Source: Escherichia coli (GTDB lineage: Bacteria; Pseudomonadota; Gammaproteobacteria; Enterobacterales; Enterobacteriaceae). From it: a DNA stretch of 328 bases. Numbering within the stretch: the first letter of the stretch is position 1; every line of letters begins with the position of its first letter. The stretch is from assembly GCF_003334385.1 (NCBI RefSeq), contig NZ_QOWN01000202.1; one strand, written 5' to 3'. The position numbers and the translations under genes were made by a program. The notes beneath the pieces are model-generated. The model saw nothing but the letters and a program-made list of their open reading frames with translations, had not been told where the DNA came from and did not search any database. This document shows positions 1 through 328 of the stretch, in pieces.

Positions 1-230
1 TGCACACCGGATTCCATCCCGCCATCGCGGGAACGCCGGGAAAGGACCACCACATTGCGGCGCAGTTTTCCCCTGCGTACCGGTGCCCGTGACACCACTT
101 CTTCTTTCAGCACATTCGCACCCGCACGGGTTGCCTCACGCAGCACCCGGTTATTTTCCGCACCACTCAGAAGCTGCAAATCACGGCTTATTTCTTCAAG
201 TCCCGAAAAATCCAGCAGGGTTTCGATCAT
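1..230 (-). CDS. Phage neck/tail-component protein, HK97 gp10-like family (putative); N-terminal 76 codons, gene continues past window position 1
   Basis: Seen in sequence: minus-strand ATG at 230-228 with a GGAGG core 6 nt upstream; the frame is open for 76 codons to the window edge. Codon choice is enterobacterial-like (ctg, gaa, gcg, gtg, cgt, ccg, aaa dominate). Translation: MIETLLDFSGLEEISRDLQLLSGAENNRVLREATRAGANVLKEEVVSRAPVRRGKLRRNVVVLSRRSRDGGMESGV. Family call is from memory: the 'GL-EL' N-terminus followed by an 'APV-x-G-LRR-' motif resembles the HK97 gp10-like family (Pfam PF04883, as I recall). No search was run. Confidence 0.78.
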   Translation of the reverse strand, partial: MIETLLDFSGLEEISRDLQLLSGAENNRVLREATRAGANVLKEEVVSRAPVRRGKLRRNVVVLSRRSRDGGMESGV

Positions 231-328
231 TTTTCCCCTCCCAGCCGACAAAGAATTTCCAGGCGCCCGCCGGTCGCATCCGGCACGGGCACCCCGACAA
301 CATTCAGGATACAGTCACGCCAGGGACC
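227..328 (-). CDS. C-terminal 33 codons of an upstream phage morphogenesis gene (possibly a head-closure/head-tail adaptor protein); 5' end lies beyond window position 328
   Basis: Seen in sequence: minus-strand frame open from position 328 to the TGA at 229-227, translating GPWRDCILNVVGVPVPDATGGRLEILCRLGGEK*. The stop overlaps the downstream ATG (ATGA), a typical coupled-gene junction. Codon usage is reasonable (ctg, ccg, gcg, ggc, gaa). The product guess is inference from the usual gene order in siphophage neck modules, not from recognisable sequence similarity. Confidence 0.5.
   Translation of the reverse strand, partial: GPWRDCILNVVGVPVPDATGGRLEILCRLGGEK
235..242 (-). promoter_or_regulatory. 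Shine-Dalgarno / ribosome-binding site for the gp10-like gene
   Basis: Seen in sequence: minus strand reads GGGAGGGG (plus-strand cccctccc at 235-242). The GGAGG core at 241-237 sits 6 nt upstream of the ATG at 230-228. The site lies inside the last codons (G-G-E-K) of the upstream gene. Confidence 0.6.

Follow-up and report, generated by a model that had tools for sequence, protein, structure and literature searches.

[quoted passage not shown] The Arg-rich stretch at residues 47-71 of this product (SRAPVRRGKLRRNVVVLSRRSRDGG; minus strand, 18..92), which in the predicted structure spans the junction of a long N-terminal helix and a beta-hairpin, probably helps to position and hold the end of the DNA within the neck, by analogy with a solved relative, gp51 of Staphylococcus phage 80alpha. 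As judged by alignment of homologues, the positive charge of the segment is a family-wide feature, and the individual arginines are specific to the lineage. The family is a known one and the protein was annotated already, RefSeq naming the gene HK97-gp10 family protein.

The tail completion gene and its locus

The minus-strand reading frame begins with an ATG at 230-228 and meets no stop codon down to position 1, so that translation of 230..1 yields 76 residues (MIETLL...SRAPVRRGKLRRNVVVLSRRSRDGGMESGV); the gene continues past the edge of the window at position 1, and the full protein has 148 amino acids. A lambdoid prophage of an E. coli chromosome contains a locus (L001) with 99.1% identity to the window; there the same ATG is the annotated start in RefSeq, and it aligns with Met1 of HK97 gp10. 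The counterpart of the window product in L001 is WP_016232511.1 (L001:6099-6545, 148 amino acids; 'HK97-gp10 family putative phage morphogenesis protein' in RefSeq), of which residues 1-76 are identical to the window product; by reading of the alignment, all three nucleotide differences between the window and L001 are silent at the amino acid level. Matches to the window of at least 90% identity are present in 1,244 of 5,426 complete E. coli genomes, and Stx-converting and related lambdoid phages match it at 95-96% identity.

The last 33 codons and the stop codon of the gene for the head closure protein (stopper, Hc1) occupy 227..328 on the minus strand, as seen from translation and from the RefSeq annotation (L001:5752-6102); the protein encoded in L001 is 44% identical to HK97 gp7 and matches PHROG 25 and TIGR01563. 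The TGA of the head closure gene (229-227) overlaps the ATG of the gp10-like gene (230-228) as ATGA, and the stop codon of the gp10-like gene likewise overlaps the start of the downstream gene (L001 6542-6545). These stop/start overlaps at both ends of the gene suggest translational coupling of the neck genes. By reading of the sequence, a Shine-Dalgarno-like element, GGGAGGGG (minus strand, 235..242), precedes the gp10-like ATG, falls within the 3' end of the head closure gene, and has a putative ribosome-binding role for the gp10-like gene.

In L001, the order of genes is adaptor, head closure, gp10-like, terminator ('gp17'), major tail protein, chaperones and tape measure protein, with the families of the genes neighbouring the gp10-like gene confirmed by profile matches. 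The diagnostic slot of a TCP gene is between head closure and terminator, upstream of the major tail protein (PMC11099176), and the gp10-like gene of L001 occupies this slot. The region L001:686-5419 is unusual in gene order and sizes: a 645-amino-acid 'major capsid protein' directly follows the large terminase gene, and after it the portal gene is annotated as a frameshifted pseudogene. This oddity of the portal and capsid annotation may reflect either naming errors or a defective prophage.

Family assignment

The initial annotation had placed the window product in the HK97 gp10-like family, and profile searches bore this out. Against TIGR01725 (cut-off 30.8) the full-length protein reaches 82.5 bits, and it also matches Pfam PF04883 (E=9e-10) and PHROG 5 'tail completion or Neck1' (E=1e-34); the 76-residue fragment by itself scores 28.7 bits against TIGR01725, slightly below the curated cut-off, with E=1.5e-6. 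HK97 gp10 (AAF31101.1), the founding member of PF04883 and TIGR01725, is 74.5% identical over residues 1-148 (tblastn, E=9e-62), and the pairwise alignment contains one single-residue gap only. The two proteins are similar in length (149 amino acids in HK97, 148 here) and in gene context, each being encoded after a head closure gene and before a terminator gene. The minus-strand frame is taken to be the selected frame because dN/dS in comparison with HK97 is about 0.08, with synonymous sites saturated.

Two of the three plus-strand frames are free of stop codons across the window (1-328), and a 141-amino-acid antisense open reading frame overlies the start of the gp10 gene in L001 (L001:5969-6394, minus strand). 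An antisense gene is unlikely, given the low dN/dS of the sense frame and the presence of one, three and five stop codons in the antisense frames of HK97 gp10; because the openness is not conserved in HK97, it is probably a by-product of composition. An explanation at the RNA level was also rejected: neither strand has an Rfam match at E<=1, and the repeats are trivial, of 10-12 nucleotides only.

Some entries in the databases reflect imperfect copies or gene calls. The first 98 positions of the PHROG 23409 profile (264 positions) match the head closure protein and positions 117-264 match the gp10-like protein, as if the profile had been built from gene calls that fuse the two genes. Some database relatives with 77-95% identity (P0004, P0005) are cut short and finish with sequence that is unrelated, such as the ...AFYRLCARHLMCAVNRRHRWRLRG of P0004, and this suggests frameshifted gene copies in decaying prophages or in poor assemblies.

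The basic stretch

Translation confirms the peptide at residues 47-71 and its content of eight Arg and one Lys as originally described; there is also one Asp, and the net charge is +8. The coordinates first given for it, 27-92, were wrong, the true span being 92..18: positions 27-92 cover residues 47-68 only, yet include all of the basic residues. The whole protein is Arg-rich (22 of 148 residues). Shuffling the sequence 20,000 times produced windows of 25 residues with at least nine Lys or Arg at p=0.21 from the full protein and at p=0.10 from the 76-residue fragment; thus, the cluster of arginines is not beyond chance within its own sequence, and the case for the basic stretch as a real feature is one of comparison with relatives, drawn from aligned sequences.

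Searched exhaustively, a set of 1.84 billion representative proteins yielded 2,334 relatives at E<=0.001, and an alignment was made of the query and 130 representative full-length relatives of about 26-74% identity (131 sequences). Among the 130 homologues, the segment aligned with residues 47-71 has a median of seven Lys or Arg and a median net charge of +5; its net charge is +4 or more in 68% of them and zero or less in 5%. In the charge profile averaged over the family, the most positive window of 25 residues is that of residues 45-69.

The segment of HK97 gp10 also has nine basic residues, several of them at other positions. The rate of nonsynonymous change (dN) in comparison with HK97 is 0.49 in residues 47-71, the highest in the gene, against 0.23 in residues 1-46 and 0.14 in residues 72-148. 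Thus, charge appears to be more conserved than residue identity, since the count of basic residues stays at nine despite the highest dN. HK97 gp10 shares the motif RAPVRxGKL[KR][KR]NVVV, and differs in having Thr at position 53 where the window product has Arg, KK where it has RR at positions 57-58, and VTQKSRRRGE where it has LSRRSRDGG in the hairpin.

These comparisons bear on whether the arginines do anything at all. It is conceivable, but improbable to a considerable degree, that the cluster has no function of its own and merely reflects a generally basic family combined with a preference of this lineage for Arg over Lys, in which case only the uncharged residues (A, P, G, L, N) would matter, for folding of the loop. 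Such a reading would account for the result of the shuffling, and is in keeping with the basic character of the family throughout (median net charge +16.5), with an R/(R+K) ratio of 0.88 in this protein as compared to 0.55 in the family, with the preponderance of Lys-to-Arg changes among the motif differences from HK97, and with the variability of positions 61-65 and 67-71. It does not account for the charge maximum of the family falling exactly on the segment, for columns 57, 58 and 66 being basic in 69-83% of diverse homologues, or for the functional positive surface that a solved homologue has at the same place (10.1101/2024.12.10.627806). Furthermore, nearly all of the net positive charge of the protein is in the segment: the charge of the whole protein is +6 and that of the segment +8, so the remainder is slightly acidic.

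Conservation of the motif

The initial annotation took APVRRGKLRR to be the conserved core of the family, which is correct for part of the motif. Column conservation defines a family block APxxTGxL[KR][KR]N[IV] at residues 49-60 (APVRRGKLRRNV; minus strand, 51..86), the full form of which is RAPxxTGxL[KR][KR]N[IV]. Four residues of the motif, A49 (107/131), P50 (122/131), G54 (125/131) and L56 (118/131), are each kept in 82-95% of the 131 sequences, and Lys or Arg is usual at positions 57 (83%) and 58 (69%). The other charged residues are poorly kept: the position of R52 is basic in 46% of sequences and acidic in 32%, and that of K55 is basic in about 51%, with Asn and Thr also occurring. At position 53, the 130 homologues have Thr in 90 cases, Ser in 20, and Arg in none, so R53 is, on the evidence of the alignment, a departure from the family Thr/Ser that is specific to its clade. 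V51 is moderately conserved (73/131) and N59 is kept in 78/131; position 60 is Ile or Val in 127/131 and position 66, Arg in this protein, is basic in 70%. The codon of Arg53 (AGG, window positions 72-74) thus replaces the Thr or Ser of 110 of the 130 homologues, and Arg53 lies two residues ahead of position 55, where the alignment puts the Asn55 of 80alpha gp51 that binds a DNA phosphate.

Multiple alignment therefore upholds the motif as one of two family blocks, but conservation in the family is strongest elsewhere. The second block, AFYWRFxEFGTxxMxAxPFxRPAF, lies beyond the window, and it is there that the most invariant residues of the family are found (Y102, E107, G109, T110, P117, F118, R120, P121 and A122). 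Both blocks are present in the full-length protein.

Predicted structure and the solved relative in 80alpha

An AlphaFold2 model computed from 114 sequences (mean pLDDT 90.8, pTM 0.83) predicts helices at residues 9-19 and 23-48, a loop at 49-56, a turn at 57-59, strands at 60-66 and 72-78, a long loop, and helices at 103-108 and 119-147, and this predicted structure has the TCP fold. Within the window, on the minus strand, the predicted elements are a long bent N-terminal helix (residues 9-48, comprising the first two helices; 87..206), the loop and turn of residues 49-60 that join this helix to the beta-hairpin, the first strand (residues 60-66, VVVLSRR) and the turn of the hairpin (residues 67-71, SRDGG), which together occupy 18..53 and whose limits also draw on column statistics, and the start of the second strand (residues 72-76; 3..17), cut by the end of the window.

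The comparison with solved neck proteins that had been proposed at the outset gave a single credible relative. A profile search of all PDB sequences found 9mu2 chain P, 'HK97 gp10 family phage protein' (E=3e-8), and the same chain was the top match of the model in a Foldseek search of the PDB, with probability 0.99, a target-normalised TM score of 0.52, 18% identity and a weak E-value of 0.02. Among predicted viral structures, the matches were HK97 gp10-family and 'tail component' proteins. Other candidates were discarded: designed 'Bagel' beta-propeller repeats, found by a single-sequence search of the PDB, match a 31-residue piece outside the window with an E-value distorted by the summed repeat score, and are spurious; amicyanin and other profile matches with E>0.1, and ribosomal proteins matched by Foldseek with TM scores below 0.26, are noise. 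No solved structural relatives of the adaptor and terminator were found, and the stopper has only one (2kz4). Papers on Brochothrix and OE33PA yielded no additional TCP structure.

The chain 9mu2_P is gp51 of Staphylococcus phage 80alpha, which has a layout of helix, loop, hairpin and helix, with a bent N-terminal helix of 55 A, and which lies as a monomer within the neck channel, directly beneath the end of the packaged DNA and between it and the tape measure protein (10.1101/2024.12.10.627806). Asn55 and the backbone of the loop bind the terminal 5' phosphate, Tyr78 and Phe81 stack on the last base pair, Arg87 holds the last 3' phosphate, and three N-termini of the tape measure protein join the hairpin in a five-stranded sheet; of the positive surfaces of gp51, one faces the DNA and another is at the base of the loop (10.1101/2024.12.10.627806). 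The predicted helix of residues 9-48 resembles the bent helix of gp51, and the two proteins share the motif TGxLxRN[IV] and the capping Tyr and Phe in the same register. In gp51, residues 43-67 are also basic, with six Lys or Arg, two Asp or Glu and a net charge of +4 as counted from the sequence. The differences are considerable: gp51 is only 18% identical and 115 amino acids long, lacks the long loop of residues 79-101, and has Asn55 and Arg87 where the E. coli protein has K55 and V111. Moreover, 80alpha packages its DNA by the headful mechanism and has an adaptor with a hairpin in the lumen, which is absent from HK97-type adaptors (10.1101/2024.12.10.627806).

Three methods (MAFFT, hmmalign and hmmsearch) place the proteins in one register, in which T53-G54-N55-L56-S57-R58-N59-I60 of 80alpha corresponds to R53-G54-K55-L56-R57-R58-N59-V60 of the window product, Tyr78 to Y102, and Phe81 to F105. 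The four residues of gp51 at the DNA end (N55, Y78, F81 and R87) thus align with K55, Y102, F105 and V111: the aromatic residues are kept, position 55 has a basic residue in place of Asn, and the counterpart of R87 is not basic. Because the registers agree, the first half of the stretch would be the loop found at the end of the DNA, its K55 occupying the phosphate pocket; by the same analogy, the second half would correspond to the strand and turn of the hairpin to which the tape measure protein binds in 80alpha.

Position in the neck and proposed role

The suggestion that the basic patch is an interaction surface within the neck is supported as far as homology to 80alpha gp51 extends, since the equivalent surface of gp51 faces the channel, where it meets the DNA end, the adaptor ring and the tape measure protein; the location itself has been shown for 80alpha only. 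Its discoverers established the interior location for 80alpha and do not extend it to HK97-type TCPs (10.1101/2024.12.10.627806).

By the preferred reading, in which the basic stretch helps to hold the DNA end, one copy of the TCP would be wedged in the neck channel with the end of the packaged DNA on one side and the N-termini of three tape measure chains on the other. The conserved loop of residues 49-60 would lie at the DNA terminus, with K55 taking the place of the phosphate-holding Asn55 of 80alpha, and the stacking on the last base pair would fall to the aromatic Y102 and F105, beyond the window. The Arg and Lys residues around the loop would form a positive face to grip the end of the DNA and would also seat the protein against the negatively charged wall of the channel, and the hairpin would zip onto the tape measure protein. 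The DNA end would be held in such a way that the DNA trails the tape measure protein out at infection. Several facts count against this reading: the HK97 adaptor lacks the beta-hairpin that touches the TCP in 80alpha (10.1101/2024.12.10.627806), the TCP of T5 was placed at the tail tip and not in the neck, the identity to gp51 is low and its Foldseek E-value weak, about 5% of the family lack a net positive segment, and the segment has the highest dN.

The same protein in the same place might use its basic residues differently, docking them mainly on the negatively charged inside of the rings formed by adaptor and stopper, so that the stretch would be an anchor and not a DNA-binding element. 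As the whole explanation this seems unlikely, even though in 80alpha the contact between TCP and adaptor makes up 60% of the surface buried between the interior and the exterior proteins of the neck (10.1101/2024.12.10.627806) and the lumen of neck and tail is negatively charged. A segment that evolves fastest, beside an adaptor that has diverged beyond detection by BLAST, would fit co-adaptation to a changed partner. However, the basic count is nine both in this protein and in HK97 gp10 despite nearly unrelated adaptors, the contact is made in 80alpha by a hairpin missing from HK97-type adaptors (10.1101/2024.12.10.627806), and position 55 aligns with a residue of 80alpha that contacts a DNA phosphate. 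Docking on the wall and holding of the DNA end are not mutually exclusive.

Other tail completion proteins

The Bacillus phage SPP1, whose host is Gram-positive, has in gp16.1 a homologue of HK97 gp10; this protein has the same gene context, helps to build the connector-binding end of the tail, the tail-to-head interface, and when missing leaves virions that are normal in appearance but eject their DNA outside the cell, so that it does not reach the cytoplasm (PMC11099176); the likeness to the E. coli protein is drawn here through this published homology. Gp Z of lambda (gpZ) and p143 of T5 are TCPs defined by gene position, in the same slot before the terminator and major tail protein, and are of the same general predicted fold class as the HK97 gp10-type TCP. 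Pairwise sequence comparison finds no homology between gpZ and HK97 gp10, and low similarity between T5 p143 and HK97 gp10 that is confined to the N-termini (PMC11099176); gpZ carries an extra beta domain (10.1101/2024.12.10.627806). The T5 protein, of 255 amino acids, was assigned to a lateral density at the tail tip.

The assignment in T5 raises the question of whether the TCP of this phage type is in the neck at all. If it were elsewhere, for instance at the tail tip, or had only a transient role in assembly, the basic stretch would bind some other partner. Besides T5 p143, many other neck maps have no density for a TCP, the HK97 gp10 family protein of Sf11 was detected by mass spectrometry and is not placed in the structure, and gpZ is not seen in structures of lambda (10.1101/2024.12.10.627806). 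A location outside the neck nevertheless appears very unlikely. Symmetric reconstruction averages away a monomer on the axis, which accounts for the TCP being missing from neck maps (10.1101/2024.12.10.627806); the T5 authors set p143 apart from other TCPs in predicted structure and call it atypical among them; and the DNA-capping and phosphate-binding positions of 80alpha are kept in the E. coli protein.

Comparison with the neck and tail module of HK97

The neck and tail module of the prophage (L001:5416-8800) was compared with that of HK97 (L002:2340-5945). The adaptors have no similarity detectable by BLASTP, though both belong to the PHROG 40 / TIGR01560 family. The major tail protein shares 68% identity with its HK97 counterpart, the chaperone 63%, and the first 130 residues of the tape measure protein 80%, the first 22 of them being identical. 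[quoted passage not shown] The identity of the TCP goes with that of the N-terminus of the tape measure protein rather than with those of the adjacent gene products, which is consistent with the two proteins pairing physically, a suggestive hint from a single comparison of sequences (L001 with HK97).

Significance

As a more speculative extension, which we regard as doubtful, the basic loop and strand might be the main clamp on the genome end in HK97-type necks, where the adaptor has no lumen hairpin of the kind that holds the TCP in 80alpha, and might have been sharpened in the clade of E. coli and Stx prophages by concentration of nearly all the net positive charge of the protein in the segment and by Arg53, which stands beside the phosphate-binding position in place of a nearly universal Thr or Ser, perhaps in adaptation to a cohesive, single-stranded cos end.

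The finding is of little importance beyond correct annotation, the gene having been named already and its solved relative known since 2025. What is added is a residue-level map of the window motif on 80alpha gp51, in which K55 would fall in the pocket for the DNA phosphate and residues 60-71 in the tape-measure-binding hairpin, and with it a shortlist of residues for studies of how the genome end may be held and released in HK97-like and Stx-converting phages.
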